Shown in pieces: positions 2,748 to 58,634 of a DNA stretch of 64,000 bases. The DNA comes from Actinomycetota bacterium (GTDB taxonomy: Bacteria; Actinomycetota; UBA4738; CALAEC01), in assembly GCA_052039025.1 (NCBI GenBank), contig JBQGDK010000144.1, forward strand, positions 1,069 through 65,068. Reading direction: 5' to 3'. The notes under the pieces are model-generated. The model was not told where the DNA came from and made no database searches. It saw nothing but the letters and a program-made list of their open reading frames with translations. Within the stretch, counting starts at the first letter, position 1. Each line of letters starts with the position of its first letter. A program made the translations under genes and the position numbers.

Positions 2748-2787
2748 TGGGGCGGGGAGGACTCGAACCTCCGACCGACGGATTATG
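2748..2787 (-). repeat. tRNA 3'-end-like element copy A (T-arm GGAGG-TTCGAGT-CCTCC plus acceptor 3' strand CCGCCCC-A); possible att core or degenerate tRNA
   Basis: The reverse complement gives a perfect T-arm and acceptor 3' strand, but no complementary 5' acceptor strand and no foldable anticodon arm upstream; homologous blocks at 16469, 30407 and 58597. Confidence 0.6.
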
Positions 2788-3032
2788 TCGCTTGAGTTCC
2801 ACGCCGGGGAGCCCCATCGCATGGTCTCACGACGGTTCGAAGCTACTCGTGGTCCGTGATGTGCCGCCCCCGGACCCCCGCGTCACTTTCTCGACGGACC
2901 TCTTCGTTCAGCCCTTGCCTCCATCAGCGAACCGCCCTAGATTCTGCTCGCCATGACTCGCAGGGAGGCTGCTGCGAGATCCCCCCCAGGGAGCCTCCAC
3001 GCTCACAGGGCCGGAACCAGAGGGAGGCAACG

Positions 3033-3680
3033 ATGAATCATCAGATCGAGAGTCCCAAGTCATCCCTGCTGACTGGGTGCGCAAACGCGTCAATGACCTC
3101 CGCCCCGCAGGGCAGGGCGATCCTCTTTGCGCTCGTCTTGGCGATCGTCCTTGCACCTATCGGCGCACAAGCAGCGGACAAGCTGATCAGCATCGTCGAC
3201 GATGACTCTGCGAGTGTTGCCCAGGTTGACAGCGGAAGCCTTCGGATCGGGGATGGGTCCGGACCCGTCACGGTGGACGGTTCAGTGAGGTCGGCCCCTG
3301 GCCCAGTAGGAGACGCGGTTCAGGCGCGACGCGGGCTCTCCGGCACGACCGTCGCCCAGGCCATGGCAGGGCCGTTCGCCGCGGATGCGTCGCTCGCCAT
3401 CACCAGCGTGATCGTTTCGAACGATGACACAGCGAGCCGTGAGGTCGGCTTTGCCATCGTAACTACACCCTCAACGTGCTCGGCCTATACGGCCGTGGCC
3501 GGGCCGCAACACTTCTACATCGTGCCAGCTCAGGACACTGTCCAATTGACTTTTCCTCAAGCCTTGATCGTTCCTGAACTACCGATCCCCGCCGGCGCGT
3601 CCTGGTGCCTCCAGGCCGTTCGACAGGATCCAGGAACCGGTTTTGTCGACGTGGAGGTGGTTGGCTACACTCTGACCTAG
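3033..3680 (+). CDS. secreted hypothetical protein (signal peptide)
   Basis: ATG 3033 after agggagg; MNHQIESPKSSLLTGCANASMTSAPQGRAILFALVLAIVLAPIGAQAAD is signal-peptide-like; no recognisable domain. Confidence 0.55.
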   Translation: MNHQIESPKSSLLTGCANASMTSAPQGRAILFALVLAIVLAPIGAQAADKLISIVDDDSASVAQVDSGSLRIGDGSGPVTVDGSVRSAPGPVGDAVQARRGLSGTTVAQAMAGPFAADASLAITSVIVSNDDTASREVGFAIVTTPSTCSAYTAVAGPQHFYIVPAQDTVQLTFPQALIVPELPIPAGASWCLQAVRQDPGTGFVDVEVVGYTLT

Positions 3681-4115
3681 GCTGTCCTCTGCCCGAGTTG
3701 CGGCGAAACATCCTGCCCTAGGCTCGTCCATCAGCGACCATGATCGCCACGGCCAATGCCGAGGTGACCACCTCCTTCACCAGTAGAGCCGCCGATCCAG
3801 TGAACCTCACGAGCCCGCGAACATGGATGAGGTGTCCACGTTGGCGAACAGGAGTAGGAGACCAGACCCCGCGCTTGGAGCCGCTCGACCCTCTCAGCTT
3901 TGGCGATGATCTGCTCCAAGCTGTCTTCTTCGCCGGCACCGTTTCACTTGCATTCCAGCTCTCATCGAGGCCGGATACCAGGATCGAAGTGGACCGAATA
4001 GAGGGGGACCGGACAGGCGACTTTCACCTTTCTTCCGGGGATGTGGACATGACCGGGAGGACATGGAGCTCCGTTGCACGCACGTGACGGGAGTCGCAAC
4101 AATGGTCGCGAGCTG

Positions 4116-4556
4116 ATGCGGTTCGTGAACGAGGTGGAGATCGACCGCCCTGTCGACGAGGTGTTCGCCTTCCTGGCCGACTTCGAGAATGTCCCCCGCT
4201 GGAACTACGCGATCGAGGAGACGATTAAGGTCTCCCAAGGGCCAGTGGTCGTGGGAACGGTGTACCGGCAGGTCCGGAGCATCCCGCGCCGAGCCGAGGA
4301 GAGCTTCGAGGTCACCTCGTTCGAGCGGGACCGGCGGCTCGCTATCAAGGGCACGCTCGGCCCGTTCGCCTCAGAGCTCCAGTACCGGCTCGAGCCCGTC
4401 AGGGAAGGCACCTCGGTGACGAACGAGGTTGAGTTGAAGCCCCGAGGGATCCTCGGCATCGTTGGTACGCTTGCCACCTCAAGGGTCAAGGAGGCGGTGG
4501 CCGGGAACCTTAGTCAGCTGAAGCGGCTGCTGGAGGGGCGCGGAAAGCCCGGGTGA
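4116..4556 (+). CDS. SRPBCC (START/polyketide cyclase-like) family protein
   Basis: MRFVNEVEIDRPVDEVFAFLADFENVPRWN is a classic SRPBCC N-terminus; ATG at 4116. Confidence 0.7.
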   Translation: MRFVNEVEIDRPVDEVFAFLADFENVPRWNYAIEETIKVSQGPVVVGTVYRQVRSIPRRAEESFEVTSFERDRRLAIKGTLGPFASELQYRLEPVREGTSVTNEVELKPRGILGIVGTLATSRVKEAVAGNLSQLKRLLEGRGKPG

Positions 4557-4642
4557 TCGAGGTTCCGGCTTGCAGGCGCGACCAGCGGATAGGTGTAGTT
4601 GAGCCCCGCCATGCGGAGCGACCTCAAGTCCTTGCTACTTGG

Positions 4643-5689
4643 TCACTCCCCCTCGCCGTCGACCCTCCGGCCTAGCTCAGCCGCCTCTCGCTCCACCCGG
4701 CGGCGCAGAACGAGGCGATCGGCGTCCTCCAGCCAGGTCGCGTCGATCCCCGCCAGGGCCACCTCGACCATCTCTGCGAAGCCGTAGCGGTGGGCCCGTG
4801 CCAGCGAGGCATACTCAGTCCCGAGGTCTTCGTCGATCATGGCCGGGTCGTCGGTGTTCAGGGTGAGGTGGAGCCCGAGAGCCCTCATCCTGGGCCAGGG
4901 GTGCTCCGCCAAAGAGGGGAAGAGGTTTGCGATCCGGACGTTGGAGATTGGGCACACCGTGAGGGGGACCCCCCGGTCTGCGAGTTCCGCGGCGGCCACC
5001 GGGTCCTCCCAGATGGAGATGCCGTGGTCGACCCGCTCTACACCGAGCTCCCGGACATCGAAGAGGATCGCAGACGGGGGGCTGTTCTCGCCCTGGTGGG
5101 CGGTGAGCCGGAAACCGGCCGAGGCAGCGAGATGATACGCGGGAAGGAACTGGGCTGGGTCGATCCCGAACTCGGTCGAGTCCATGCCCACCCCGATCAC
5201 CCGCTCGGCCTTCCCCGTTCGGCGAAGCGTGATGAGCTCCTCCACCAGGTGCTGCCCGGCCTCTCCTCCGAACGCCCGGTCCATGTCGGCAATCAGCACG
5301 ACCCGGGCCCCGGTCTCCGACTCCCCGGCCTTGAGCCCCTCCTCCAGCCCCGCCACGATGTCCCCGAGACGCTGGCCTGCAGCGAGATGCCGGGCCGGAG
5401 TGAAGAAGGTCTCCCTGTAGATGAGCCCGTGGGCCGCCCCGTCCTCGACCGACTCATAGGCGAGCCTGGCCCAGTCGTCCCGCTCCGCCAGGCACTCCTG
5501 AATGAACCAGAACACCCGAAGAAAACCGTCCAGGCTTGTGTAGCGGTACAGCTCCTTCGGGTCCTCGGCAGGGAGGGGCCGCTCGTTCTTCTGAGCCAGC
5601 TCCGCCACGGTCTGCGGGCGCATCGTCCCCTCCACGTGGCAGTGAAGCTCGACCTTGGGCAGCCGGTTGAGCGCTTCCTCTAGCTCCAT
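4643..5689 (-). CDS. add: adenosine deaminase
   Basis: KVELHCHVEG metal-binding motif, ...HQGE..., SLNTDDP-like region; start ATG 5689 after a ggagag RBS. Confidence 0.85.
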   Translation of the reverse strand: MELEEALNRLPKVELHCHVEGTMRPQTVAELAQKNERPLPAEDPKELYRYTSLDGFLRVFWFIQECLAERDDWARLAYESVEDGAAHGLIYRETFFTPARHLAAGQRLGDIVAGLEEGLKAGESETGARVVLIADMDRAFGGEAGQHLVEELITLRRTGKAERVIGVGMDSTEFGIDPAQFLPAYHLAASAGFRLTAHQGENSPPSAILFDVRELGVERVDHGISIWEDPVAAAELADRGVPLTVCPISNVRIANLFPSLAEHPWPRMRALGLHLTLNTDDPAMIDEDLGTEYASLARAHRYGFAEMVEVALAGIDATWLEDADRLVLRRRVEREAAELGRRVDGEGE

Positions 5690-5952
5690 CGCTCTCCTCA
5701 CCTATCGGCTGCCGGCGGTCGAACTAGTCCGATCGTAGCGGTTGTGGTTCCACATCAGACTTCGTTCTCGCATTCCCAGTGATGGCTCCAAGGAGCCGCT
5801 CCCACTGGCAGCTGCGCAGGCGGCGCCTTCCCCAACCCCTCCGAGCAGAGTTGTGTTGCCCAAACGGGACCAGTATTTCGGTACCCGCAGGTCCGCAAGA
5901 CCCACCTGCCGCCCAAAGGGTGAGATTGTCGGCATCACGAGGATCCACGAAC

Positions 5953-6195
5953 CTAACCAGCTCGGCAACGGCGGCTTCGAACCGAGTGGTCTCCCCGAAC
6001 TCCTGAAACCATATCTTGGGAGGTATCCAAAACGAGCACATAATTCAGACGAATAGGTTCCGGAGGCTTCGTCAGGTAGGTGATCACGGCAAGGATATCG
6101 GCAACGATGAGGGAGGCGGCAACGCTTATGATCACGGGACGCCCGATGCGATCCCAGGTCGACTTGGCCCCGTTCGCGTCTGAACTCTCAGCCAT
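5953..6195 (-). CDS. small membrane protein (hypothetical)
   Basis: MAESSDANGAKSTWDRIGRPVIISVAASLIVADILAVITYL has one TM helix; its start overlaps the stop of the ORF upstream; low confidence. Confidence 0.3.
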   Translation of the reverse strand: MAESSDANGAKSTWDRIGRPVIISVAASLIVADILAVITYLTKPPEPIRLNYVLVLDTSQDMVSGVRGDHSVRSRRCRAG

Positions 6196-6436
6196 ATGGT
6201 CGCCCGCTGTCCTTCGGTGGATTCGCAGGGTCACACAGGTTCTCGTGCCAATGTTCGCTGAGTCGGCTCGGGTGACCACCACACTCGGCCAGGTCGCCCG
6301 ACCGGAGGGTGATGATTGACCGATACCATCGGACACCACCCTGGCCGGCTCCTGTGTCGAACTCGAAGTCGGCCACGCGGTCCAGGCCGCGCCGCACTTG
6401 GTTGGCTAGGTCATGGGGAACAGGTGACGCCATCAC
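6188..6436 (-). CDS. hypothetical small protein, translationally coupled to nagZ
   Basis: Start overlaps the nagZ stop (6433-6436); 82 aa with no recognisable family. Confidence 0.35.
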   Translation of the reverse strand: MMASPVPHDLANQVRRGLDRVADFEFDTGAGQGGVRWYRSIITLRSGDLAECGGHPSRLSEHWHENLCDPANPPKDSGRPYG

Positions 6437-7461
6437 CGAACTTCTCCGGCGGTCTGGGGCCGCTGAGAGTTGGCCGCGACCTCAAGGATACGCTCCACAG
6501 AGTCGCGCACTGCTGACGCGTTCAGACGACCAAGGGCCACCGCCGCCTCGAGCCGGTCGAGCACCGCCGGCACGAAGCCATGGGCTTTGATGACCACTTG
6601 GTCCACCCCCGCCGCAATGGCCATCTCTGCTGCTTCGGCAACAGTCCACGAGCTGGTAATCGCCTTCATCTCAAGGTCGTCGGTGCAGATGATCCCCTGG
6701 AACCCCAGTTCCTCTCGCAACATGACAACGGCGGACCTTGAGAGGCTCATTGGCAGGTCTGGGTCAAGGGATGGCACCAGCAGGTGACCGATCATGATTC
6801 GGGGGATGCCGGCCTCAATAGCGGCCCGGAAGGGCGCGACGTCGCGGGCCAGAAGATCATCCTCGCTGGCCTGAATCGTTGGGAGGTCCCTGTGTGAGTC
6901 GATGACCGTCCGCCCGTGTCCCGGGAAGTGCTTGCCGACGGACTGCACTCCAGCGGTGAGAAGCCCTTCCATGAAGGCAACCCCCGCCCTCGCGACCACA
7001 ATCGGGTCCTCGCCGAATGAACGGTCCCCGATCACCGTCTCGGCCGGTGTTCCCGAGACGTCCAAGACCGGCGCGAAATCAACCGTCACGCCCAAGTGAG
7101 CAAGATCCGCGCCGAGCCGCGTCGCCGCTGACCGAATCGCGCCCTCATCGAGCCGTCCCAGTTCCCGGGCCGGCGGCAGCCCGTCTACGATGCCGTCCAG
7201 CCGAGCGATTCGGCCGGGTTCCTGGTCAACGGCGACCTCAAGGGGGCCTGGCGCACCTGATCGGAGCGTGCGAATGAGACGCCTGAGCTGGACGGAGGTA
7301 TCAATGTTCCGACGGAAGAGGACAAGGCCGCCGATTCCCGCCTGAATAAGTTGCTGGCTCCTTGGGTGTGGTGCTTGGCCGGGGAAGCCAACGAGGAGTA
7401 GTCGAGCGAGGACACTCCGCGAAACGGAACGGTCTAGTCGCGCGCCCATCGTTGACCGCAT
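6433..7461 (-). CDS. nagZ: beta-N-acetylhexosaminidase (glycoside hydrolase family 3, NagZ-like)
   Basis: GH3 N-terminal domain motifs (KHFPGHG, catalytic Asp region TDDLEM); about 340 aa. Confidence 0.8.
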   Translation of the reverse strand: MRSTMGARLDRSVSRSVLARLLLVGFPGQAPHPRSQQLIQAGIGGLVLFRRNIDTSVQLRRLIRTLRSGAPGPLEVAVDQEPGRIARLDGIVDGLPPARELGRLDEGAIRSAATRLGADLAHLGVTVDFAPVLDVSGTPAETVIGDRSFGEDPIVVARAGVAFMEGLLTAGVQSVGKHFPGHGRTVIDSHRDLPTIQASEDDLLARDVAPFRAAIEAGIPRIMIGHLLVPSLDPDLPMSLSRSAVVMLREELGFQGIICTDDLEMKAITSSWTVAEAAEMAIAAGVDQVVIKAHGFVPAVLDRLEAAVALGRLNASAVRDSVERILEVAANSQRPQTAGEVR

Positions 7462-7708
7462 GCTCCTACGGAGACACTCAGCATGATGAGCGCGAAACGG
7501 TCGCGGTCCGCCCCCACAACGTCAGGATCAGGACCGCTGCGATCCCGATGGCGAGAGCCCACCGAGGACTATTCGCACCACCAGTCAGCCCGATGGCTTC
7601 GGCGGCCAATGCCTGGGGTACGCAGCGGCGCTCACCCGCACCTCCAGTGCTGGCCATTGTCGAGCCGTTGGGCCTGACCTCACCCTCAAACGGGTATCTC
7701 GTGTGAAC

Positions 7709-8518
7709 TCATGAAACTCCTCTCCGGATGTCGCGAAGGCGGGCGAACAGCTTGTCGCCCGGGCACTGCGTCGAGCCGCCCTCTGCTCCCACGTCACGAT
7801 GGCCCAGGATGTGCGCCGTCTCGGTGACGTGGTCATGGTCCTTGCCCTGGAGGATGAGAGCGATGTAGGCCGCGATGAGATCGTCGGAAGGCCTCATCTC
7901 CATGAAGTTGCCCACCGCTGCCGCACCATGGCCATCGCTGTTGTGGTCGAACGTGTGCCCGCCAACGACTCCCCATCCTCGCCCCTCGAATACCGTCCCG
8001 TTGTTGAACAGAACGAAGGAGTAGTCGATATCGTTGTGACCCTTCCCAAAGGCACCGGATTGGAGCCCGCGGACAGCCTGTTTCTGTTCGTCTAAGTCGT
8101 CGGAGGATGCAGTCACCGTATGGTGGATGTAGAAGTTGGGGGCGGGATCCCGCATACGGATGGTGGACCGAGGCGGCTCCGCACCCCACTCCTGGCGCTT
8201 GATGAACCGAAGGCTGGGCTCGGGCTCCACCTCCTTGATGATGTAGGTCACGTCGGCCCGGACGGAATCCAAGCGAAACGTGTCTCGAGCCTGGTTCTCG
8301 GCATTGCGGGCCAATCGATCCTCGAGACGCCCCAGAGCATCGGAAAGCTTGCTGGGTTCGCCGAATTCGTCGTCGCCAGCCTTCTTGATCCTCCAGTCCG
8401 CTCCGCCCTCATCGTGCTGCTTGACTCGCTCGGTCAATGCCTCTATGGCGACGGCGCGGTCAGCGTGGATCTCCGGAAACATCTTCTCGGCATCGGTCCG
8501 TCCCAGCTGGTACTTCAT
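7709..8518 (-). CDS. N-acetylmuramoyl-L-alanine amidase (amidase_2/PGRP fold) with N-terminal extra domain
   Basis: C-terminal half carries amidase_2 Zn-ligand pattern (HTVTAS...H...GHRDVG...C); ATG 8518 after a gggagg RBS. Confidence 0.7.
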   Translation of the reverse strand: MKYQLGRTDAEKMFPEIHADRAVAIEALTERVKQHDEGGADWRIKKAGDDEFGEPSKLSDALGRLEDRLARNAENQARDTFRLDSVRADVTYIIKEVEPEPSLRFIKRQEWGAEPPRSTIRMRDPAPNFYIHHTVTASSDDLDEQKQAVRGLQSGAFGKGHNDIDYSFVLFNNGTVFEGRGWGVVGGHTFDHNSDGHGAAAVGNFMEMRPSDDLIAAYIALILQGKDHDHVTETAHILGHRDVGAEGGSTQCPGDKLFARLRDIRRGVS

Positions 8519-8772
8519 GTCGCTCCCCCTCCCTTCCTCCTCCTCCTCGGTGCCCGCCTCGACCGGCGGCGGTACTCGACCCATGTAGTGACAAGTGCCG
8601 CGATCCACGAGACCAGGATCATCGTCGCGCTGGGTACCTGATCAGGGATCTGCACAAAGGCTCCGACGATCACGAACAGGGCTCCGGTGGCGCTCCCAAT
8701 ACCCGCCGAGAACACCTCGGCCGGCCGACGCTCGAGCAGGCTGGTTCCGACGATGCTCGGATTCCCATCCAT
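8515..8772 (-). CDS. small 2-TM membrane protein, holin-like, overlapping the amidase start
   Basis: MDGNPSIVGTSLLERRPAEVFSAGIGSATGALFVIVGAFVQIPDQVPSATMILVSWIAALVTTWVEY has two hydrophobic helices and a charged C-terminus; ATGA-type overlap with the amidase; aaggggg RBS. Confidence 0.45.
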   Translation of the reverse strand: MDGNPSIVGTSLLERRPAEVFSAGIGSATGALFVIVGAFVQIPDQVPSATMILVSWIAALVTTWVEYRRRSRRAPRRRRKGGGAT

Positions 8773-9130
8773 CCGTTACCCCCTTGGGCTTCGGGCCCTC
8801 CGTGGCGCCGACCGTCTCGCGGGAATAGTCACCCTTATTGATAGCTTGGTTCATATGGGGGGTTGCGGGGGATCCGGCCCGAAGGGTGTGGGGAACTTCT
8901 CCTGACGTGACCTGCGGCGGCCTTCCTTCTGCGGCATTCCACCCTCCTCGCGGACCGGAGGCTCTGGCGAGCGAACAATGCCAGCGCGCAGGTGTTGGCC
9001 TAGCGGTTTGGACGCCCCGGTGCAAGAGGGAATCCGGCCTACAAAGGCAGCTCGGCCTGAGACCCCAAGCGTCCGGCGTGGCGGTACCCCCCAGAGGTTG
9101 CGGCCAACTTATCGGCAGAGGTAGCCTCAA

Positions 9131-10462
9131 GTGCCGACCGAGGGACGAGGCGTGCCGACCATCGGGGTCGCGATCTCGGGTGGGGGTCACCGAGCCGGGC
9201 TCTCTGGGCTCGGGGTATTGCTTTATCTGGCCGATGCCGAAAAGAACCGCCACGTGGCCTCCGTCTCTTCGGTCTCCGGCGGCTCCCTCACCAACGGCTA
9301 CGTAGCGCAGGCTGTCAATTACGCGGATGTGCCTCCAGACGACTTCCGGAAGGCGGTGGCGCCGTTGGCGCGACGCCTCGCCCGCACGGGCACGTTCTTC
9401 CCGCCCTCACCCTTCACGTGGGTCTACCTCTTCCTGCTGGGTGCGCTCCTCCTCGCGCTCATACTCATGTGGTGGACGCCATGGGCGATCTGGGTTCGCG
9501 CGGGTGCGTTCGTGCTGGGGGTCGTGGCCTTTTTCGGGCTCGCGGCTACCCGTGGCCTCGTGTGCTCCCGGGCACTGGCGCGCACGCTGTATGCGCCCGC
9601 AGGGCATGCGACCCGGCTCGCTGAGATCCACGACGAAGTCCAGCATGTGATCTGTGCGACGGACCTGCACGCCGGAGAGCATGTGTACTTCTCCAAGGAG
9701 TTTGTCTGCTCCTACCGCTTCGGGTGGGGCACCCCAGCCGATCTGCCGCTGCACGTCGCGGTGCAGTGTTCCGCGGCACTGCCCGGCGCCTTCCCGCCCC
9801 GGTGGCTGCCGGTGTCCCCACACGCCTTCGCCGAAGGCCAGCCCGAGGCCGCCGGGACCACCCGGATGGCGCTTGTCGACGGCGGAGTCTACGACAACAT
9901 GGCCGACCAATGGATGATTGGCCTTCCGGAGCGTCGGCGCCACTGGCCCTCGCACGCCGTCGCGATGCGCGAGCCCGAGGAGATCGTGATCGCCAACGCC
10001 TCAGCCGGTCTTGGCTGGGAACCGATCGGAGGCATACGCCTGCCCATCGTGGGCGAGATCGCGGCGCTATTGCGCGACAAGACCGTCCTGTACGACAACG
10101 GCAACACCGTTCGACGCCGACTCGCCCTCGAGCGATTCCGGACGGGGCAGATCCGTGGGGCTATAGTGGATATCGCTCGAAGCCCGCTGGAGGTGGCCGA
10201 CCGTTTCGCCGCCGGCACCGACGACGCAGCCGCCCGCGCTCGCGCAGTGGTGGCGCTCCTTGAGCCGGAGCGGGTCGCGTGGCGAGAGATCGCTGAGCTC
10301 GATGCCCGGATGGGGACGACCCTTTGGGGCTTCAAGGGGGCGGCGGGGGCGCGGTTGCTGCGCCACGCCTACGTGCTGGCGATGGCGAACCTGCACGTGC
10401 TCTTGGACTACCCGCTGCTTCCGGTGCCCACCCAAGCCTCGTTCGAGGAGCTGGTTGCATGA
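9131..10462 (+). CDS. patatin-like phospholipase with an inserted 2-TM segment
   Basis: GVAISGGGHRAG (oxyanion GGGxR/KG), SGGS (GxSxG nucleophile) and LVDGGVYDN (DGG Asp) motifs; a hydrophobic insert WVYLFLLGALLLALILMWW...FVLGVVAFFGLAA. Confidence 0.8.
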   Translation: MPTEGRGVPTIGVAISGGGHRAGLSGLGVLLYLADAEKNRHVASVSSVSGGSLTNGYVAQAVNYADVPPDDFRKAVAPLARRLARTGTFFPPSPFTWVYLFLLGALLLALILMWWTPWAIWVRAGAFVLGVVAFFGLAATRGLVCSRALARTLYAPAGHATRLAEIHDEVQHVICATDLHAGEHVYFSKEFVCSYRFGWGTPADLPLHVAVQCSAALPGAFPPRWLPVSPHAFAEGQPEAAGTTRMALVDGGVYDNMADQWMIGLPERRRHWPSHAVAMREPEEIVIANASAGLGWEPIGGIRLPIVGEIAALLRDKTVLYDNGNTVRRRLALERFRTGQIRGAIVDIARSPLEVADRFAAGTDDAAARARAVVALLEPERVAWREIAELDARMGTTLWGFKGAAGARLLRHAYVLAMANLHVLLDYPLLPVPTQASFEELVA

Positions 10463-10980
10463 GCACCTCGAGTGGTCCGGGGGTCGCACCGTGGATCCCC
10501 CGAACGCTTGCCTCTTTCGACGTCTCGAAGCTCGTCTACGTCGTGGTGGACGAGCTCGAGTCCGACCGCGTCGGTCTCTGCATCTCGCCGTGGCCCGTGA
10601 TCGATTCGCGTGGGCGCCTGAGGTTCGACCTGGAGCAAACCCGGCGGGTCGGCGTGCACCGCGAGGCCTTGGAGGAGAGGCTCGCCAGGCATCGCCGTTC
10701 GAAGCGCCGCGTGGAACGTCCGCTCCGGATCGGGGACGTGTTTGCGGTCCAGCTTCGCGGACGCCAACGCCCTAGGGAGGGCACGATCAGCGATCCGGCG
10801 CGCTGGATGGGTCCCCCCATCGTCGATGTGACGCGCGAGTCGCGGGAGGTTGCGAAGCTCGCCTTCCACGCCGCGGTGGCACCGCTGCTCCACCCGAAGC
10901 GAGATCGCGCGGTAATCGAGCTGGCGCCCGAGACCGGCGTGACCCTTCACGGCCCAGCACCCCGGAGGAAACGCTCGTGA
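10457..10980 (+). CDS. hypothetical protein (174 aa), middle gene of the patatin operon
   Basis: ATG overlaps the patatin stop (ATGA) and its stop overlaps the next start (GTGA); no recognisable domain. Confidence 0.55.
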
Positions 10981-12137
10981 CGGGCCCGATTGCGCCCGTG
11001 CCCACGAGCCGGCTGGCCGCCGGCGACTTCTGCTCAGACATCGACGACCGCGACCTCGTGTACTTCTTGTTGAACGTCGGTGATGCCGACTGCCAGCTGA
11101 TCCTGCTGCCCGTCGAGCTGGACCCGCAGAACCAGCCGTTTCGGCGCGCGGTCGTGATCGACGTGGGCGTCACGAAGAAGCTCCCGGCGCTCATCGCCGC
11201 CCTTCGGTCCCCGCCCGTGGGCCCGCCCCTGCTCCGGCCCCAGGCCGGGCCTGGCACGTTCCCGGTCGTCGTCGGATCGCATCCCCACGACGATCACATC
11301 CGGGGGATGGCCGAGCTCTTCGAGAGCTTCGGTCAGGAGATCACCGAGTACTGGGACCCTGGCTATTACTACCCTGGTCAGGCCTACCTCGAGACCATGG
11401 CCTACCTCGAGGACGCCAGCCGCTATGTCTCTTACACCCAGCCGACCGCGGGGATGACCCGGTACGTGGGGGCGGTGAAGCTCGTGGCCCTGTCGCCGGC
11501 GATCGGACTCCGGAGCCGCTTCGACTCCTATGGCGTGGAGCCCAACAACGCCTCGATCGCCCTCAAGGTCGAGTTCCCAGCCTCCCGCGTCGAGCAGCGG
11601 GGGCCGGATCGCCGCTACCTTCGGATCCGGACGACGCAATCGCTCATTCTCGGAGCCGATGCTCAGACCCTTTCTTGGGGCTACGTCATGACGGACTTTC
11701 CCGAGCTTCGTCCCGATGACTCGCCGGTCGCCAAGGAGCTTCGCATGGCGCTCGGGTCTGATCCGCTCAGAGCCTCGGTGTTTAAGATCCCCCATCACGG
11801 CTCCAAGCACGGGGTCAATCTGGAGCTCGTCGAGCTCATCCATCCCGCGATCGGCCTGGTGTCCTCGGTGAACGGGGGTGGCAAGTACCAGTTCCCCCAC
11901 GAGGTATCGATCGAAGCCATCCGCGAGGGGATGGAGCCCACCACCTCAGGCGGCCATGAGCGAAGCGACGACTGGGACCTCGAGCTGCACTACACGGCCG
12001 CGAAGGACTCCGTCGGAGCAGTGCTCGGATCGATCGGGCTGGTGCTCTCCCCCACTGGCAGGAAACGCCATCTCTGGCGCTTCGGTGATGCTCCCGCGCA
12101 CCGCGTCGACCTGACCATGGGGCGCCGCTTCTCCTGA
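10977..12137 (+). CDS. metallo-beta-lactamase fold hydrolase (ComEC/Rec2-like MBL domain)
   Basis: VVVGSHPHDDHIRG (HxHxDH) and KIPHHGSKHG motifs; translationally coupled to the preceding gene. Confidence 0.7.
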   Translation: MTGPIAPVPTSRLAAGDFCSDIDDRDLVYFLLNVGDADCQLILLPVELDPQNQPFRRAVVIDVGVTKKLPALIAALRSPPVGPPLLRPQAGPGTFPVVVGSHPHDDHIRGMAELFESFGQEITEYWDPGYYYPGQAYLETMAYLEDASRYVSYTQPTAGMTRYVGAVKLVALSPAIGLRSRFDSYGVEPNNASIALKVEFPASRVEQRGPDRRYLRIRTTQSLILGADAQTLSWGYVMTDFPELRPDDSPVAKELRMALGSDPLRASVFKIPHHGSKHGVNLELVELIHPAIGLVSSVNGGGKYQFPHEVSIEAIREGMEPTTSGGHERSDDWDLELHYTAAKDSVGAVLGSIGLVLSPTGRKRHLWRFGDAPAHRVDLTMGRRFS

Positions 12138-12300
12138 GATCGGGATCGTCACTGTCCGAGGAAGAGCCCGTCGGAGAGGGGGCGATCGCCCTGAACTCCC
12201 GCCGCTACCCCTCCTGGCGCTAATGGAGGAGGTGCAGCTCCGCACCGGCTCGTCTTCCGCGATGGCCCGCATTAACGCGACTGGTCCGCGGTTCGTGCTC

Positions 12301-13017
12301 TTAGACCTCGGTGACCTGAACCGTGCGCTGATCCCAGCCAGTGAACCGGTCGCCGCCCTCCTCGACCAGGGCGAAGGCAGTGACCGCGGCGGGCCCGGGG
12401 GACCACCCTTGGGAGTTCTCGAGCCTGACCGGCCAGGTATGCGAGCCCCCATCGCAGGTCGGTACGTAGAAGGCCTGGCTCGGGTAGCGGAAGACCGGTG
12501 ACTGCAGCCCGGTGCTGCCCACCGGACACGCCACCGTGACATCGATCACCAGTGACGTGCCGCCGTCCTGGAGGAGCCCCTCATCGGCCAAGGCCACCGT
12601 GACGATCGGGCCGAACCGCATGACCTGCGCGTCTTGGACCTCCTTCGTGCGGCCCTGCCTGAAGAGGACGGCCGCGCTCACCTGCGCTTGCCCGGTCTTG
12701 AACACGCCATCGGACGGCACGGTAACTTCGATGATGTCGCGTCCGATGCAGCGCGGCGAGAAGGGTGCCTCGCCCGACGCCTGCGGCTGGACCACGCTGA
12801 CCCGTGCCTCCACGACAGTCTGCTGCTCCAAGCAGTAGACGTCGAGGCGCACAATCGCCGCCTGGCTATCGGGCCTGAGCCCGACCGACTGCAAATAGAC
12901 CCCCGGGTCCTGCGAGTTGCCAGCAGCGGCAGGCTGTGCGGTGCCGGCCACAACCAGGGCGAGCAGGCCGGTAAGCGCCAGCCGATGCATCCGGCGAAAC
13001 GCATAGCTTCTTCCCAT
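12301..13017 (-). CDS. secreted hypothetical protein
   Basis: ATG 13017 after a gggagg RBS; MGRSYAFRRMHRLALTGLLALVVAGTAQPAAAG signal peptide; several Cys; no known domain. The 323-aa track ORF is over-extended. Confidence 0.55.
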   Translation of the reverse strand: MGRSYAFRRMHRLALTGLLALVVAGTAQPAAAGNSQDPGVYLQSVGLRPDSQAAIVRLDVYCLEQQTVVEARVSVVQPQASGEAPFSPRCIGRDIIEVTVPSDGVFKTGQAQVSAAVLFRQGRTKEVQDAQVMRFGPIVTVALADEGLLQDGGTSLVIDVTVACPVGSTGLQSPVFRYPSQAFYVPTCDGGSHTWPVRLENSQGWSPGPAAVTAFALVEEGGDRFTGWDQRTVQVTEV

Positions 13018-13531
13018 GACTACCTCCCGTGACCGACCGACTGCTTGCCTCCAGGCAGAAGCAGCGCACGAAGTGTCTATGAGCGTCGGGCCCTCCCGGG
13101 GGTCGGGACAGTTGGCCGGCGACCGGGCGGCGAAAGGTCTTCTGCTCGTAGCCGCAGTCGATCGACGCAGGCGCGACGTGGTCCGAGCCGAGACGACCCC
13201 GTGGCCGGCCGGGACCACCCTGATGGTCACCTCCTCACGCCCCGACCGTAACGTTCCGTGGTCGCAGCGCACCAGGCCAGACTCCGAGCAGTCGCTCCTC
13301 GCATCGCGGCCCCAAGGGCCACTCGTCTACCAAGTCCCACACTAGGTACTACTGGCGGGTCGCCCCAGTGGATTGCGATTTGGGCTAGCTCGCCAGTAGC
13401 GCCACCTGGGTCCCGCGCGCTATCCCGTGGGGTAACGAATTCAATCGGGCCGCTGACCTGCGGCGTTGTCGTGAGGGCGTCGAGGCGGTCGGGCTGCGTC
13501 TCGTGCTCGCGTTCCTCCTGTATCGCCTCTC

Positions 13532-13860
13532 ATGCGGCTTCGCCTGCTCGTTCGGGCGGGCTTCCATGACCAGGAGCTGGAGATCGCCGTGCTCCACCAT
13601 CAGCTGCGGGTCCTCACCCAGGGAGGGAAGGGGCCCCGCTACACCTCCGCCGACCGGCCAGGGAGGACCCGGATAGGGTTACTTGAGGATCCGAGGAGAG
13701 GTGCTGAAGCTCGGGGCCCGGTTTTCGGCCACCGCGATCCGGACGATTCTTCGCCGAGTGGGCTCGGCCCCGCTCGACCAAGGAGCGATCCCACCTGGAC
13801 GACGCCGCTTAGGCCGGGTGTCGGATTTCTGTACCCCGCAGGCCGGCCTAATCGTCTCCG
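13532..13860 (+). mobile_element. transposase relic (integrase-core-type IS, HTH N-terminus), frameshifted fragment
   Basis: Two frames give ...ELEIAVLHHQLRVLTQ... and ...MRIRGEVLKLGARFSATAIRTILRRVGSAP..., matching the conserved N-terminal region of actinobacterial integrase-core-type IS transposases (family uncertain); no intact ORF. Confidence 0.5.
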
Positions 13861-13873
13861 GTTTGGGGAGCGG

Positions 13874-14980
13874 CTACAGGATCTGCTCGGCCACCTCCAC
13901 TCGAAGCAGGCTCCTCACGTTCTCGATCTGGTTGGCTATCGTCGCCACAGACGATCCGGCGAACAGGAGCCCCACGGCCACCTCGTCCAGCGTGCTGATG
14001 AGGGACCCGGAATCGCCTGGTGCGGACATGTTCGTGGTGACGATCTGGTCGAGGAACCGAGCCACCCTGCCTCCGCCGTACGCAACGTCGATGGTGGCAC
14101 TCACGGCAATGATCCGACCAACTGTGAAGTTGGTTGTTCGTCCACTCTTCTGGACAAGCGTTCCAACGGTGACGTTGGCCTTGCGGCGCCACCCGCGGAT
14201 GTTTCCGACCCAGTGAATCTCCCGGTCGATGTCGTGATATGCCGCCTCGGCTAGGGCAGCATCCACCAGGTTCCGGTGGAAGGCCCTCGGCATCGGTGGC
14301 TCAAACGTGATGGGGATAAACCGACTCAACCGGGCGACGACGTCCGCAGGGAAGAGGCCGCCGTCGAAGGGCCCGGGCTGAAGAATCGGATCCCCGATCG
14401 CTCCGGCGTTGCTGTTGGCCAGGACGTGGTTGTTGCTGAGGACGAAGTAGCGGGCCGGGATACCCACGCCGGGTGCCGGCGGGCTTATGGTGCCGCCCGG
14501 CAGGATATCGTAGACGGCAGTGGCGATCGTTCCCGCCGTGATGTCCTTGTGACCGACGCTGTAGCCCCCCTCGACGGGACGGAGACGCTTCGTGAGGGTC
14601 TGGACCCCCACCTCGGACATGAGCAAGGGCGCCTCGTGAGCCACTATGCCCCCGTCGCCCCCCTCTGGCATGAGTTGCTCGGCGACCACCTCCCCGATCT
14701 CCACGACGTCCGTGGTTAAGTCCTGCACGGTTGGGGGGATGAGCTCATCCCGGGTGAGGTCGTCCTTCGGGACTTTGTGGGTGACGAGTACGAGGAGCGC
14801 AGGCTCCCCCGTGAGCTCACCCTCGGTTTCCTTCACGCCGATACCTACCCCGACGACGTTAGGCTTCTGTAGCCGAGGATCCTCAGGGAGGAGCTCCGGG
14901 ACCGCCTTCGCGTGAGGCCCCGCGAGCTCCGCTTGGACGTCCTCGGTAAGCATGGCCTTGGTTTCGTCGAATGGTTTCAT
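13874..14980 (-). CDS. trypsin-like (S1 family) serine protease with N-terminal accessory domain
   Basis: SAPGDSGSLI (GDSG Ser motif) and NNHVLA (His); start chosen at ATG 14980 (gaaggaagg RBS) rather than 15100 to avoid a 50-nt overlap with the upstream gene. Confidence 0.6.
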   Translation of the reverse strand: MKPFDETKAMLTEDVQAELAGPHAKAVPELLPEDPRLQKPNVVGVGIGVKETEGELTGEPALLVLVTHKVPKDDLTRDELIPPTVQDLTTDVVEIGEVVAEQLMPEGGDGGIVAHEAPLLMSEVGVQTLTKRLRPVEGGYSVGHKDITAGTIATAVYDILPGGTISPPAPGVGIPARYFVLSNNHVLANSNAGAIGDPILQPGPFDGGLFPADVVARLSRFIPITFEPPMPRAFHRNLVDAALAEAAYHDIDREIHWVGNIRGWRRKANVTVGTLVQKSGRTTNFTVGRIIAVSATIDVAYGGGRVARFLDQIVTTNMSAPGDSGSLISTLDEVAVGLLFAGSSVATIANQIENVRSLLRVEVAEQIL

Positions 14981-16416: not shown

Positions 16417-16468
16417 TCAGAGGCTGCTTCGATGAACACTTGGCTGCAGTACGGCCGGGGTTTGTTCG

Positions 16469-48089: not shown

Positions 48090-48610
48090 GGTAGCTGCGA
48101 CGTGTGAAGAGGGCGTGAACGTCGGATGGCTGCGGGATGCGTTCGGACCGTCCTCGATGCGATCCTCCGGCTCGAGCAGCTCGAGCTCGTCAACCGGTCC
48201 CAGCGCCTGCCAAGGGCGACCGGGCAGCAGGACGGTGGAGGCCCCCGCCACCGCCACCACGTTCCCACCGGCGTCCGAGACCTCGGCGGCCGTGACCGCG
48301 ACGGTCTTCCCTCGGTGGACGACGCGGGCGGCGACCAGCAGCTCACGGCCGTCGGGGGGTGACCGGCCGGAGGAAGTTCACCTTGAGATCGAGGGTCGCC
48401 CACGACATCCCCGGTGGGGCGGTCGTCTGCACCGCGCCGTTCATCCCGTAGTCGGCGAAGAGCGCGAGGGCGCAGCCATAGAACCCACCACCCATCGTGC
48501 CACGGTGTGGCGGGCATGGCCAGGGTGCATCGACCCTCGGCGGCGTCCTTTGACCGAGCACCCGAGGAAGCTCGACAGCGGCGTCGTCGGACGCTCCCCG
48601 CGCTGCCAGC
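48090..48610 (-). pseudogene. PaaI/hotdog-fold thioesterase, frameshifted (three frames)
   Basis: MTGLDILRGWQRGERP (frame 1), GGFYGCALALFADYGMNGAVQTTAPPGMSWATLDLKVNFLRPVTP (frame 2), DGRELLVAARVVHRGKTVAVTAAEVSDAGGNVVAVAGASTVLLPGRPW (frame 3). Confidence 0.5.
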
Positions 48611-48631
48611 CACGCAGGATGTCCAATCCCG

Positions 48632-49234
48632 TCATCCGGTCCCAGACCTCCTGGGGCAGGTTCTCCCCATCCGTGGGGCGCCGGAAGGGATGCGGTCCCT
48701 CGTGCTCCGGCCAGTCGATCGCCTCCTCCGGCTGCGGATCGGGGGCGGATCCGGGAGCCGCCGCACGATGCACCTCGAGGTGGCCCGGGCCAGCAGCCGC
48801 CCCGCGCCGTCCTCGATCGATGCCTCGGTGAGCCCCTGGGCGGACCCGGCTCGTAGCAGGGACCCGCGGGCGACGATCGCCTGAGCATCTGCGGCGGGCG
48901 GCTCCAGGAAGTCCATGGCCAGCTCCGCGGTGGCCAGGAAGACGTTGGGCGGGAACGTGGGGTGCAGCGCTCCACCCAGGGCGGCGTCGGCGGCGAACAC
49001 GACCGCGCCGCCGGTGACCACGCCGGCTCCCGACCGGAGCCAGGACGTGACCGGAAGGCGGAACGTGGCCGTCCCCGGGGCCGCCTCGACGAGGTCGAGG
49101 CCACTCAGGTACCAGAGCGGCCCGTACGGGACCTGCTTCCGGGTGAACCGCCGCAACTGCTCCAGCCCGGGAGGCCAAGCAGCCCGGGATGCTCGAGGTA
49201 GGCAAGCCGACCCCGGGGAGCCTCCCGGTGCAAC
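48632..49234 (-). CDS. PaaI/hotdog-fold thioesterase (second copy; ends uncertain)
   Basis: GAGVVTGGAVVFAADAALGGALHPT...FLATAELAMDFLEP...GRLLARATSRCIV; no canonical start found and a C-terminal read-through, so it may also be damaged. Confidence 0.4.
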   Translation of the reverse strand, partial: VAPGGSPGSACLPRASRAAWPPGLEQLRRFTRKQVPYGPLWYLSGLDLVEAAPGTATFRLPVTSWLRSGAGVVTGGAVVFAADAALGGALHPTFPPNVFLATAELAMDFLEPPAADAQAIVARGSLLRAGSAQGLTEASIEDGAGRLLARATSRCIVRRLPDPPPIRSRRRRSTGRSTRDRIPSGAPRMGRTCPRRSGTG

Positions 49235-49250
49235 GTGGACGTGGACCCGC

Positions 49251-49856
49251 TCACGGGAGCGCCCGTCTGACCTCGGACAACAGACCGTCCGGGGAGACGA
49301 ACATGGATGGATAGTCGCCCCGCCAGCGGATGATCCCCTCCCCGTCGACAAGGATGAAGCTGTGCCCGGGAAGGTCGGCGTGGTGACCGGTTCCGAGCAC
49401 CCCGTAGGCAGCCGAGGTCCGCTTGGTCGCATCCGACAGGAAGGGCGTTCGGATCCCGAAGCGAGCGGCCTCCGAGGCCACCATCTCCGGAGGATTGGTG
49501 ACCACCGGAAGCACGGTCACGCCCACCCTTTCCAGGTGGTCGTCGTGCGCTTCGAGCTGAACCATCTGCGTGAAGCAGGAGTCACACCCGACGCCCTCGT
49601 TGAAGTACAGGAGGACGTTCCGTCCGCGATATCCCTCGAGGCTCTTGACGGTCCCGTCCGTCGCCGGGAGGGCGAACCTCGGAGCGACCTCCGATACGCG
49701 CTGGCCTGGCGCGGGTCGTTCCGCCCCAGCCATCCACATCAGCCCGATCAACGCGACGACGGCGCCAGTGCTGACCAGGGTCCCGGCGTGGCGGCGGATG
49801 AGCGATGGCTCAGCCGACCGGCGTCGCCGAAGGGCTCGGCTCTTCTTCGCTCGCAT
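49251..49856 (-). CDS. TlpA-like thiol:disulfide oxidoreductase (redoxin family), membrane-anchored
   Basis: TM anchor, then GCDSC (CxxC) in an AhpC/TSA-like fold; ATG 49856. Confidence 0.7.
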   Translation of the reverse strand: MRAKKSRALRRRRSAEPSLIRRHAGTLVSTGAVVALIGLMWMAGAERPAPGQRVSEVAPRFALPATDGTVKSLEGYRGRNVLLYFNEGVGCDSCFTQMVQLEAHDDHLERVGVTVLPVVTNPPEMVASEAARFGIRTPFLSDATKRTSAAYGVLGTGHHADLPGHSFILVDGEGIIRWRGDYPSMFVSPDGLLSEVRRALP

Positions 49857-56575: not shown

Positions 56576-56582
56576 CGCCCTA

Positions 56583-57692
56583 TCACCCCCGGTACACCGT
56601 GGCCGGGTCCAGGCGGGCGACCCGGCGGGTGGGAAGGACCGCGGCCAGGACCGCCATCACCCCAGCGGCGACAAGAGCTCCCACGAGCGCTCCCGGGGAC
56701 ATCCGGACCCACATCTGGGGCCTCACCACACCGACCAGCCACGACGCGCCCCAGAACAGCCCGAACGCCACAACGGCGGCTACCCCGGCGATGATCAGGG
56801 TCTGCCCGAGCACGATGCCGAACAGCCGTCCCCAGCGCGCTCCCATCGCCTTGGCGATCCCGTACTCACGGATCCGCTCCACGATCGCCGAGTACACCGT
56901 CAGGGCGATGATCAGGGTTCCAGCAGCGAAGGCGATCGCGAGCATCAAGCCGATCGCCCCGTTCATGATGCGGCCGAGCAGGGCCCGGTCGTTGTCCCCG
57001 AGCTCTTGCGGGGTGAGGACGGCAAGTCCCGTACGTTCCCGGATCCGCTGGGCCGCGACGCCGGAATCGTCCGCCTGCACCAGGACGTAGCTGGTGGTGC
57101 CGGGCATCAGCAGCAGCTGCTCGATGGCCGAGTGCGTCGTGAACACGAACCCGGCCATCCACGAGCGGGTCCCACCCGACATGCCGACGACCCGGAAGGG
57201 TGCGCCCATGACCTCGACCGTGTCTCCTATGGCGATCGAGTGCTGCTCGGCGACCGTCTGATCGATGACCACCTCGTCGTTCGCGCGTACCGCCCGGCCA
57301 GCCGCCATCTCCCAGGGGCCGCCCATCTCGCCCCGGAGCGATCCCACCAGGAACACGAACACCTTTCGGTCGTGGAGGTCGAGTACGGCGAAGCGAACCG
57401 CGATCGGATCCGCCCGGTCCACCCCGGGGACCGCGCGGATGGCGTCCACCGAATCCATGGGGATGACCGAGGGGACGCCGAGGAAGTTCTCGGTGCCCCG
57501 CTCCCCGACGAACAGATCCGCGCCCACGTTGTCCTCATAGGCCGAGACCTGGACGCGGAACCCGCTCCAGAGACCCTGGAGGAGGAGGATCAGAGCGAGG
57601 GCCGCCGCCACCCCGAGCACGCTCGTGAACAGCCGGCGCTTGTCGGCCGCCACGTTCCTCCGGCTGACGGGAACACCTCTGCCCAAGACCAT
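56583..57692 (-). CDS. ABC transporter permease, FtsX/MacB-like (second)
   Basis: Paralogous topology; start chosen at MVLGRGVPVSRRNVAADKRRLF (ATG 57692), which aligns with the N-terminus of the partner permease. Confidence 0.65.
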   Translation of the reverse strand: MVLGRGVPVSRRNVAADKRRLFTSVLGVAAALALILLLQGLWSGFRVQVSAYEDNVGADLFVGERGTENFLGVPSVIPMDSVDAIRAVPGVDRADPIAVRFAVLDLHDRKVFVFLVGSLRGEMGGPWEMAAGRAVRANDEVVIDQTVAEQHSIAIGDTVEVMGAPFRVVGMSGGTRSWMAGFVFTTHSAIEQLLLMPGTTSYVLVQADDSGVAAQRIRERTGLAVLTPQELGDNDRALLGRIMNGAIGLMLAIAFAAGTLIIALTVYSAIVERIREYGIAKAMGARWGRLFGIVLGQTLIIAGVAAVVAFGLFWGASWLVGVVRPQMWVRMSPGALVGALVAAGVMAVLAAVLPTRRVARLDPATVYRG

Positions 57693-57950
57693 CACCTCGG
57701 GGACTATGCCCTCGGGGGGTACGGTACGGTCGCCACCTGGCCGGTTCATGGGCCGGACGGCCCAGCGTTTCTGGGACGCTCGGCCCCCTGGCCGGAAGCT
57801 GCTGGCGCGACGAAGGCGCTCGCCCGACTCCAGGGAACATGATCGACCGAGCCACCGTGAGGGGCAGGCCGTGGCAGCTATGTTCATGGCGCATCGAATC
57901 ACCACACGCTTGACGGCGATCGTTCAGAAACCCATGAGCCTCGAGGAGAG

Positions 57951-58436
57951 GTGATGGGAGCGGATCCGGGCTCGTTGTCGTGGACGGGTGGCGCTGCTGC
58001 ACTCCTAGCAGCGGCGACCCTTCTCGCCGGGATCGGGGGTCTTGCCACCCGCTCCTCCGGGCTGCGCCCATGGCTCGCCGTGCTGTTCGGCATCAACGCC
58101 GGAGCGGGCGATGTGTCCCCCGACACGTTGAGAGCGATCAAGCCGATCGACATCCTGCTGCTTTCCCTCGCAGGCGTCACCTTCATCGGCTTTCGGCCGG
58201 GACCCGGCACCCGTCAGGTGCCGTGGATTCCTGGCGATCGCCCTGCCATTCGCCGGCATCGTGATCCTGCTGGCCACACGCCTTGGGGGTCGCTCGGGTC
58301 TGAAGGGGGCGCCCTTGTGCTCTCCATCCTCATGCTTGTCAGCGATGCATGGACCGGCTTGGGATACGTGGGGATCGCTGCGAGCGTTCTGCTCCTCGTC
58401 GGGACCTCGGGACAAGCGGACGTCGGTCCCGAGTGA
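57951..58436 (+). CDS. hypothetical membrane protein (possibly frameshifted; alternative frame 58190..58515 is also TM-like)
   Basis: Hydrophobic segments in two overlapping frames; unresolved. Confidence 0.25.
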   Translation: MMGADPGSLSWTGGAAALLAAATLLAGIGGLATRSSGLRPWLAVLFGINAGAGDVSPDTLRAIKPIDILLLSLAGVTFIGFRPGPGTRQVPWIPGDRPAIRRHRDPAGHTPWGSLGSEGGALVLSILMLVSDAWTGLGYVGIAASVLLLVGTSGQADVGPE

Positions 58437-58596
58437 TGCGACCCTCGTCGCAACCGGCTACGTAGCGCTGATCGGCTGGTTACTCTGGATCGCGGCACGG
58501 CTGCTCGTCCCGTGACCAGCGGACTCGCGTGTCAGCACGGACCATTCGCACCGGCTCGCGGCGGCCTTCATCGAGCCTGAATGAGCACATGACCAG

Positions 58597-58634
58597 AGCA
58601 TTTCCGTGGGCGGGGACTCGAACCACCGACCGGC
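58597..58634 (-). repeat. tRNA 3'-end-like element copy D (degenerate; 2-nt deletion in T-arm)
   Basis: gtgggcggggactcgaaccaccgaccggcggatcatgag is homologous to copies A-C but cannot form a T-stem. Confidence 0.5.

Follow-up and report, generated by a model that had tools for sequence, protein, structure and literature searches.

The stretch of DNA analysed here (the window, 64,000 nt of contig JBQGDK010000144.1 from an Actinomycetota bacterium) carries four direct copies, A to D, of the 3' part of an elongator tRNA-Met(CAT) gene, which delimit the intervals E1 to E4 (Table 1). We consider it probable that these repeats are relics of attachment (att) cores, left behind by insertion of tyrosine-integrase elements into tRNA-Met, and that the window represents a tandem array of genomic islands. 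Five observations carry this interpretation: the tRNA-Met identity of the repeat, the missing 5' halves of all copies, an integrase relic with its characteristic layout, the homology of the flanking arms across genomes, and the recurrence of such arrays in related genomes. An initial annotation of the same DNA had already described four tRNA 3'-end-like repeats in the same orientation and attributed them to duplication by integrases that target tRNA 3' ends; the first claim was confirmed and the second is supported.

Four direct copies of a tRNA-Met 3' part

When searched with an nhmmer profile built from 27 cores, the window yielded exactly four matches, all on the plus strand (the next match had an E-value of 1.8), and no fifth copy emerged within the 28-kb interval at E<100. 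A 27-nt pattern matched copies A, B and C with at most one mismatch (0 expected by chance), and a 23-nt degenerate pattern matched all four (0.06 expected). Besides, A to D were the sole non-genic repeat in a self-BLAST of the window. Successive copies are spaced by 13.7, 13.9 and 28.2 kb, as annotated initially; the four copies also lie where they were placed then, except that the start of D, given as 58597, was about 8-10 nt too early. Each copy lies in 0.7-2.7 kb of weak coding signal.

In reverse complement, the copies correspond to the 3' part of elongator tRNA-Met(CAT), which they cover from its anticodon loop through position 73. On the minus strand, the block reads ...CTCAT(A/G)A-TCCGT-CGGTC-GGAGG-TTCGAGT-CCTCC-CCGCCCC-A and comprises, in this order, the anticodon loop (CAT), the 3' strand of the anticodon stem, the variable loop, the T-arm, the 3' acceptor strand and the discriminator base. 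While the T-arm and the acceptor 3' strand had been recognized correctly at the outset, the ~12 nt thought to extend beyond the acceptor are in fact internal to the tRNA: the stretch CGACGGATYATGAG corresponds to the variable loop and the anticodon arm, the latter represented by its 3' stem strand and the loop (CTCATRA).

Copy A is identical to the intact tRNA-Met of a related genome (L014; 42/42 nt) and to several other intact genes (41/41 nt; BLAST), and its tRNA likeness stops directly after the anticodon (ATG). Copies B to D are 80-95% identical to tRNA-Met. Copy B has two substitutions, in the variable loop, and keeps part of the 5' strand of the anticodon stem; C has three, among them A37G in the anticodon loop and one that affects the universally conserved A58 of the T-loop; D has suffered a deletion of ~4 nt in the acceptor/T-stem and several substitutions. 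The 5' tRNA halves are missing from all four copies, the ends of which fall within a few nucleotides of each other in the anticodon loop.

ARAGORN called none of the copies a tRNA, and the Rfam tRNA model returned nothing for them at its gathering threshold. At E<=5, only copy B scored, with 23 bits against a cut-off of 29 and with the D-arm missing. These results rule out that the copies are functional tRNA genes, in line with the original view that none is an intact tRNA; the outcome named there as refuting, a bona fide tRNA call for one or more copies, did not arise. The only ARAGORN call in the window, a tRNA-Lys(CTT) at 37659-37733 (-), lies inside the N-terminal coding region of a copper P-type ATPase, has no Rfam hit at E<=5 and is almost certainly a false positive.

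Table 1. Features of the window. Positions count from the first letter of the window.
Feature	Position	Strand	Length	Description	Basis
Left flank	548-2469			Short-chain dehydrogenase (-); extracytoplasmic-function (ECF) sigma factor with SnoaL domain, 1475-2467 (+)	
Flank 3' of copy A	2719-2745	-		Shared with the 3' flank of intact tRNA-Met in L012 and L034	
Copy A	2746-2787	tRNA sense (-)		3' part of tRNA-Met(CAT), anticodon to acceptor end	nhmmer, E 3.6e-16
Interval E1	2788-16466		13.7 kb	Between A and B	Pfam, PHROGs, PADLOC
Transposase N-terminus relic	13424-13657	+		Motif ...DQELEIAVLHHQLRVL...RPRYTSADR...	
Copy B	16467-16510	tRNA sense (-)		tRNA-Met 3' part	nhmmer, E 1.8e-15
Right arm of B (type II)	16511-16660			GACCTGCGG ~25 nt from core, TGCGGCATTCCTGCGGCATGCAAGGCAAGC ~120 nt from core	
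Interval E2	16511-30404		13.9 kb	Between B and C	Pfam
Tyrosine-integrase relic	30024-30298	+		Transcribed toward copy C	Pfam, tblastn
Copy C	30405-30448	tRNA sense (-)		tRNA-Met 3' part	nhmmer, E 4.4e-14
Right arm of C (type I)	30449-30545			GTCTGGTGCCGT motif, then GTTCGTTAGCACCGTTGTCAGCAC	
Interval E3	30449-58604		28.2 kb	Between C and D	Pfam; ATPases named by plasmid BLAST
Copy D	58605-58646	tRNA sense (-)		Decayed tRNA-Met 3' part	nhmmer, E 1.5e-7; degenerate pattern match
Right arm of D (type I)	58647-58780			Repeats of CGTGCCGTCCTG and GTCTGG	
Interval E4	58647-64000		>=5.4 kb	Right of D, runs off the window	Pfam
NirK	60918-61952	+			Named by homologues

An integrase relic and conserved arms adjoin the copies

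The relic next to copy C joins the arm-binding N-terminus of a tyrosine integrase (aa ~29-69) in frame to the last ~55 residues, with an internal deletion of ~874 nt. Pfam recognized Arm-DNA-bind_4 (E 2e-6) and, directly following, the last 40 positions of the Phage_integrase catalytic domain (E 0.039); the C-terminal part retains box II (...RHAVATELG...LGHAS...VAVY). By tblastn, it is 80% identical at the amino acid level, in two blocks, to the full-length integrases of two related loci, L014 and L020. In L014, the blocks correspond to residues 29-69 (30024-30146, 80%) and 354-408 (30135-30298). Nucleotide homology to both loci covers 29892-30131 and 30142-30448, and it is from the gap between these segments that the ~874 missing nucleotides follow.

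The L014 gene encodes a 410-aa tyrosine integrase with Arm-DNA-bind_4, SAM-like, central and catalytic domains; it ends 15 nt from the 3' end of an intact tRNA-Met and reads toward the tRNA. The L020 integrase, 71-73% identical to it, abuts a tRNA-Met fragment. In the window, the relic and copy C reproduce the convergent layout of intact integrase and intact tRNA-Met in L014, which bears out the earlier statement that an integrase relic lies by copy C in the orientation expected for a minus-strand tRNA. A third locus, L023, has the order xis-int-tRNA-Met, with an HTH_17 excisionase gene before an integrase unrelated to the L014 type and an intact tRNA-Met.

To the right of B, C and D, ~90-140 nt have homologous counterparts beside the fragments of L011, L013, L017, L019, L020 and L035 and hold short direct repeats typical of arm-type sites. 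Judging from these sequence features, the right arms of the three copies look like attP arms with putative integrase arm-type sites. The type II arm of B (the ~140 nt right of this copy) is 76-82% identical to the flanks of both L019 fragments, in alignments of ~185 nt, and shares the 30-mer TGCGGCATTYCYGCGGCATGCAAGGCAAGC as well as the GACCTGCGG motif with L020. The type I arms, right of C and D, carry repeated GTCTGGTGCCGT and CGTGCCGTCCTG. That of C is 75-81% identical to fragment flanks in L011 and L013; at D, positions 58608-58780 are 80% identical to L017 499-676 (179 nt), and the arm also aligns with those of L035.

On the left side of copy A, positions 2719-2787 are 88% identical to L012 (BLAST). 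When metagenomes were searched with a pattern for the A-type flank, a single contig (L034) came back, which has an intact tRNA-Met and a matching flank in no useful context. This fits copy A being the outermost, chromosome-derived junction.

We also noted a motif, TGACCTGCG(G), 10-25 nt left and ~25 nt right of many cores (L005, L019, L020, and in the window at 2728-2740 and 16534-16545), which shows up as its reverse complement GCCGCAGGTCA beside integrases of the L014/L020 type. It may be a candidate protein-binding site.

The parent gene and its fragments in related genomes

Searching a single genome of each species with a pattern that matches copies A to C, we retrieved 24 loci, nearly all from metagenome-assembled genomes (MAGs) of uncultured Actinomycetota. 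One record (L024, JBHGAT010000167.1) is titled Candidatus Velamenicoccus archaeovorus; its contig begins with this actinobacterial tRNA-Met and is probably a binning contaminant. An intact tRNA with the identical 3' end, for which the initial annotation had proposed a search, was found as tRNA-Met(CAT) in 14 of the 24 loci (L014, the 42/42 match of copy A, being one of them), and the rest contain fragments. In these MAGs, too, the fragments lose their tRNA likeness either in the anticodon loop (ATGAG) or slightly further on, within the first bases of the anticodon stem. Such a shared endpoint at the anticodon is what recombination at a fixed site would produce, and random decay would not. Some cores of the attP type, namely C, D, L007 and L018, carry A37G, and element types vary slightly in the base at which identity stops. 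In four loci (L010, L014, L015, L026) a tRNA-Asn gene is found 1-4 kb away from the intact tRNA-Met, on its 5' side, which probably marks the native tRNA-Met locus.

Extra degenerate copies accompany the first hit in L006, L010, L011, L013 and L019, each of which holds at least two fragments, or an intact gene and a fragment; same-orientation arrays are thus common in this lineage. Some of them are short. In L010, an intact tRNA-Met (5837-5911) and a fragment (6552-6587) are separated by only 640 nt; two fragments in L011 (173-215 and 661-696) lie 450 nt apart, and the gaps in L011 and L006 span 0.45-1.7 kb. The short gaps of L010 and L011 are islands worn to almost nothing and illustrate how far these elements decay.

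A unit close in size to E1 and E2 occurs in L035. The E4 module at 60586-63976 is syntenic with this contig (75-78% identical); there, the NirK genes belong to a 14.9-kb unit that has a near-identical direct repeat at either end (4287-4340 and 19237-19290). Both repeats are similar to the 3' part of initiator tRNA-fMet, though their T-stem is imperfect, and are accompanied by the type I arm motifs found at C and D. It therefore seems that a related element family uses another tRNA with the anticodon CAT, in which the CTCATAA loop recurs.

A model of serial insertion and its alternatives

In the mechanism we propose, tyrosine-integrase elements would insert site-specifically into the 3' part of the minus-strand elongator tRNA-Met(CAT) gene, with a crossover presumably in or near the anticodon loop. 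Each insertion would duplicate the tRNA from its anticodon loop through its 3' end: the copy brought by the element would restore the tRNA, and the displaced 3' half would remain as a fragment. Repeated insertion at one site would then build a head-to-tail series of fragment, island, fragment, island and so forth up to an intact tRNA. This intact tRNA-Met would be expected to the right of D, past the window and next to a tRNA-Asn gene; if L035 is a guide, the array is predicted to end ~9 kb beyond NirK. As to the order of arrival, two options would fit both the pristine state of A and the least host-like composition of E1: either E1 is the newest island and entered the leftmost core, or A is the 3' half that stood in the chromosome from the start. 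By now, the islands appear to be fixed, as the sole surviving integrase has lost its catalytic core and D has decayed.

The atypical GC content and the phage-type genes of E1 speak in favour of this model, as do the copper genes beside an integrase or fragments in L014, L019 and L020 and the absence of all DNA right of 2469 from six relatives that share the left flank. Several results weigh against serial insertion of this kind. Neither ARAGORN nor Rfam found an intact tRNA-Met in the window, as had been anticipated in the suggestion that the target tRNA lies outside it, which leaves the end of the array out of view. Searches for integrase traces in the low-coding DNA that surrounds A, B and D (1-3 kb), by six-frame Pfam (E<=0.05) and by tblastn with a set of five integrase queries (E<=5), gave only noise, so that such a trace is left in one (E2) of the three complete intervals. 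Pfam scans of the called genes in the window returned no excisionase, replication, conjugation or phage structural genes, and accordingly no hallmarks of a prophage or of an actinomycete integrative and conjugative element (Rep, FtsK-like Tra, structural or packaging genes). E2 to E4 have a host-like composition. The kdp module of E2 occurs in three other contigs (L031-L033) with neither an integrase nor a tRNA fragment adjoining it. Next to the sigma gene of the left flank, none of six relatives has a tRNA-Met or a clean empty site; the only tRNA-Met nearby among them (L003) is an initiator. On the initial question whether the inter-repeat blocks come and go as units, the comparison of related genomes gave mixed results: the NirK module of E4 lies in a repeat-bounded unit in L035, the kdp module sits in other contexts with no att or int, and the six relatives lack both the DNA right of 2469 and a tRNA-Met at that place. 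Finally, that each interval corresponds to one element is something we infer. Of the serially integrated elements in the initial annotation, the same-orientation array therefore stands, and the equation of one interval with one element stays conditional.

This last point leads to the alternative that fares best, to which we give a small but real chance: the repeats would be att relics, yet the intervals would not equal one element each. The number of events may have been different, deletions or cargo capture may have intervened, the 28-kb interval may hold two elements, or some of the DNA, such as kdp, may be chromosomal and have come in by rearrangement. The single surviving integrase relic would suit such a worn array, as would the 640-nt gap of L010 and the 0.45-1.7 kb gaps of L011 and L006, which tell that elements shrink to near nothing, and the kdp module with its boundaries at gene ends in other contexts. 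Moreover, one and the same right-arm type adjoins two different integrase families (in L019 and L020), which implies that junctions between unlike elements are common. On the other hand, all four fragments are direct, whereas inversions would have flipped some of them; E2 has a type II arm at its left end and, at its right end, the very integrase family that abuts the type II arm in L020; and the L035 unit, at 14.9 kb, is of similar size and bounded by repeats.

An assembly artefact, in which the repeat common to all would have linked alternative islands that occupy the tRNA-Met site in different cells, appears most unlikely. The source is a MAG contig, shared repeats are classic sites of mis-joins, and this lineage has many alternative elements at the tRNA-Met site. 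However, the longest exact run between A and B is ~17 nt, with C and D differing further, which is far under the usual assembly k-mers; multi-fragment arrays are present in contigs from several independent studies and assemblers; and the flanks at each junction are unique. That the copies are tRNA pseudogenes decayed after duplication, or a tRNA-derived dispersed repeat (akin to short interspersed nuclear or miniature inverted-repeat transposable elements) with no link to integrases, is scarcely credible: they are tRNA-derived, and B keeps part of the anticodon stem and a weak tRNA score, but the same 5' portion is missing everywhere with a near-common end in the anticodon loop, unlike random decay, an integrase relic and conserved arms adjoin the copies, and there are no terminal inverted repeats, target duplications or other copies on either strand. 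We also rejected an integron, as the repeats are tRNA-derived, the intervals are multi-operon blocks of 14-28 kb and the relic stems from a lambda-type arm-binding integrase.

Building on serial insertion at tRNA-Met, one may speculate further that the element family, recognizable by shared arm repeats such as GTCTGGTGCCGT, switched its core between elongator tRNA-Met and initiator tRNA-fMet via their common CTCATAA loop, and that ion- and metal-homeostasis modules of ~14-15 kb pile up, lose their integrases and form a permanent modular accretion platform, a cassette array at the scale of islands, instead of ordinary islands in decay. We regard this combination as improbable.

Relation to known systems

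Integration into tRNA genes is familiar from the actinomycete integrative elements pSAM2 (tRNA-Pro) and SLP1 (tRNA-Tyr) and from mycobacteriophages of the L5 type. The present system resembles them in its high-GC Gram-positive host, in an integrase that reads toward an attP overlapping the tRNA 3' part, in the arm-binding N-terminal domain of this integrase, and in the xis-int order next to the tRNA (as seen in L023). It differs in that the intervals, the cargo of which serves ion and metal homeostasis, yielded no genes for replication, transfer (FtsK/Tra-like) or phage structure, and in that the integrases of this lineage are only ~30% identical to known plasmid and phage integrases.

The 2002 scheme of Williams reportedly sorts tRNA attachment sites of tyrosine integrases by sublocation and includes an anticodon-loop class. 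As in this class, the identity block described here extends from the anticodon loop or stem to the tRNA 3' end and slightly past it, and the anticodon stem provides the dyad symmetry expected of core-type sites. Points of difference are the A37G carried by some cores and the variable ends of identity.

A symmetry argument for tRNA attachment sites is also mentioned in work on tandem arrays of integrative genetic elements (PMC7192596). Such arrays at tRNA and tmRNA genes are established and have been mapped by Islander/TIGER; upon integration, a crossover core is regenerated on each side, and either of the two can receive further elements (PMC7192596). Our array shares with them the adjacency of islands with direct tRNA 3' fragments in between. 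Arrays of this kind end in an intact gene and have the integrase adjacent to the tRNA. In the window, the integrases are gone save for one relic, the intact tRNA end is unseen and the host belongs to the uncultured Actinomycetota. As the Islander/TIGER pipelines need one integrase per element, their rules would leave this array unresolved, and any island finder that demands one integrase per island would miss it.

The mechanism as such is not new, given that both tRNA-targeted integration and tandem island arrays are already known. What the window adds is an uncultured soil and sediment lineage of actinobacteria that would gain modules for potassium uptake, copper resistance and nitrite reduction through a single tRNA-Met hotspot. 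The att cores, the arms and the two integrase families could serve as probes for islands of this kind in MAGs.

Interval contents and left flank

All cargo listed in the initial annotation was recovered: an amidase/endolysin-like gene, a patatin gene, a transposase relic, the kdp operon and a copper island. E1 is a phage-like remnant. It encodes an SRPBCC protein, an adenosine deaminase, a GH3 protein, an endolysin-like amidase, an operon for a patatin, an unknown and an MBL-fold protein, a secreted protein, a phage-type serine protease with a truncated copy, and the relics of a transposase and of a cyclase N-terminus. With a GC content of 65.6% and of 0.84 at third codon positions (GC3), E1 is the lowest in the window (68-71% and 0.90-0.94 elsewhere), and each of its ends consists of ~1-1.6 kb of weak coding signal. 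PHROGs, applied to the E1 genes and those at the left end of E2, recognized only the endolysin-like amidase, the protease and, weakly, a tail protein.

The apparent operon at 9152-12134 (+) comprises a patatin-like phospholipase, an unknown protein of 150 aa and the MBL-fold protein, which has weak PADLOC matches (LmuA, RT-associated MBL, Avs1a); PADLOC gave nothing for E1 beyond such weak MBL-domain matches. The operon is possibly a defence-type module. The serine protease (13877-15061, -) is a strong match to phage family phrog_20754 (E 4.5e-61), and directly upstream of it lies a truncated second copy (15063-15356, -) with only the N-terminal ~80 residues. The relic at 13424-13657, which from its motifs we take to be the N-terminus of a transposase, is 76.6% identical at the nucleotide level to L025 2959-3196; L025 also has a tRNA-Met fragment.

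E2 provides Kdp potassium uptake and an ABC transporter. Its genes encode a membrane protein, an ABC-2 transporter, a DUF4097 protein, the sensor half of KdpD, KdpCBA(F), a DUF4118 histidine kinase and KdpE, besides the integrase relic. KdpD is split into two genes on opposite strands that flank kdpFABC: a sensor half with KdpD and Usp domains downstream of kdpC (21321-22616, -), and a separate DUF4118-GAF-HisKA-HATPase kinase (27584-29143, +), divergently transcribed with KdpE. The split layout is kept in L031-L033, where the module (21318-29856) is 76-82% identical, ends at gene boundaries and has other neighbours. E2 as a whole was hence rejected as a unit shared with other genomes: the kdp module is conserved and its neighbours are not. 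The module may be ordinary mobile cargo, or not element-borne in these three contigs.

E3 is devoted to copper and redox homeostasis. It encodes a DUF1980 protein with an ArsP permease, CsoR, two copper P-type ATPases, a cupredoxin, GAPDH-like, HAD, Usp and GH65 proteins, a disrupted thioesterase, a redoxin, CcdA-like and glutaredoxin-like proteins, a two-component system, and an ABC-YHS ATPase with two FtsX permeases. One of the two copper ATPases (34826-37789) has a homologue of 71% amino acid identity beside two tRNA-Met fragments in L019, and copper genes adjoin an integrase or fragments in L014, L019 and L020. At 48340-49260 (-), the coding signal of the thioesterase-like (4HBT) gene jumps among three frames, which suggests a frameshifted pseudogene. 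No close relatives of the window were found among sequenced plasmids.

In the left flank, a conserved chromosomal segment, identity to L001 is 92% at the nucleotide level and homology stops at the stop codon of the sigma factor (2469). Six related contigs (L001-L003, L028-L030) all keep DUF899, the dehydrogenase and the sigma factor (88-92% identical); on the side away from the sigma gene, the window has YbjQ where these relatives carry DUF899. The genes downstream of the sigma factor differ completely among the six, all of which lack the window DNA right of 2469, and the position after the sigma gene is a hypervariable junction. In L028, a 64-aa integrase fragment lies ~1 kb beyond DUF899. 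A sigma/SnoaL gene by the L005 fragment was discarded as conserved synteny, being merely a 41% paralogue.

E4 is a nitrite-reductase module with a decayed cyclase, two cupredoxins, the copper nitrite reductase NirK, a small open reading frame and a GltD-like Fe-S flavoprotein. NirK has no homologue above 78% identity, unlike the sigma factor and KdpE with relatives at 89-92%, and those of its relatives that match best and bear a name belong to Bacillota (Thermaerobacter, Symbiobacteriaceae) and Nitriliruptoria. So patchy a distribution agrees with horizontal transfer. Cyclase relics lie beside two copies: just left of B (16119-16265, +), with a weak match to the adenylate/guanylate-type cyclase of L021 (41% over 49 aa), and just right of D (59089-59268, -), likewise weak (32% over 66 aa, E 0.017). 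Intact cyclase genes adjoin tRNA-Met or its fragments in L011 and L021.

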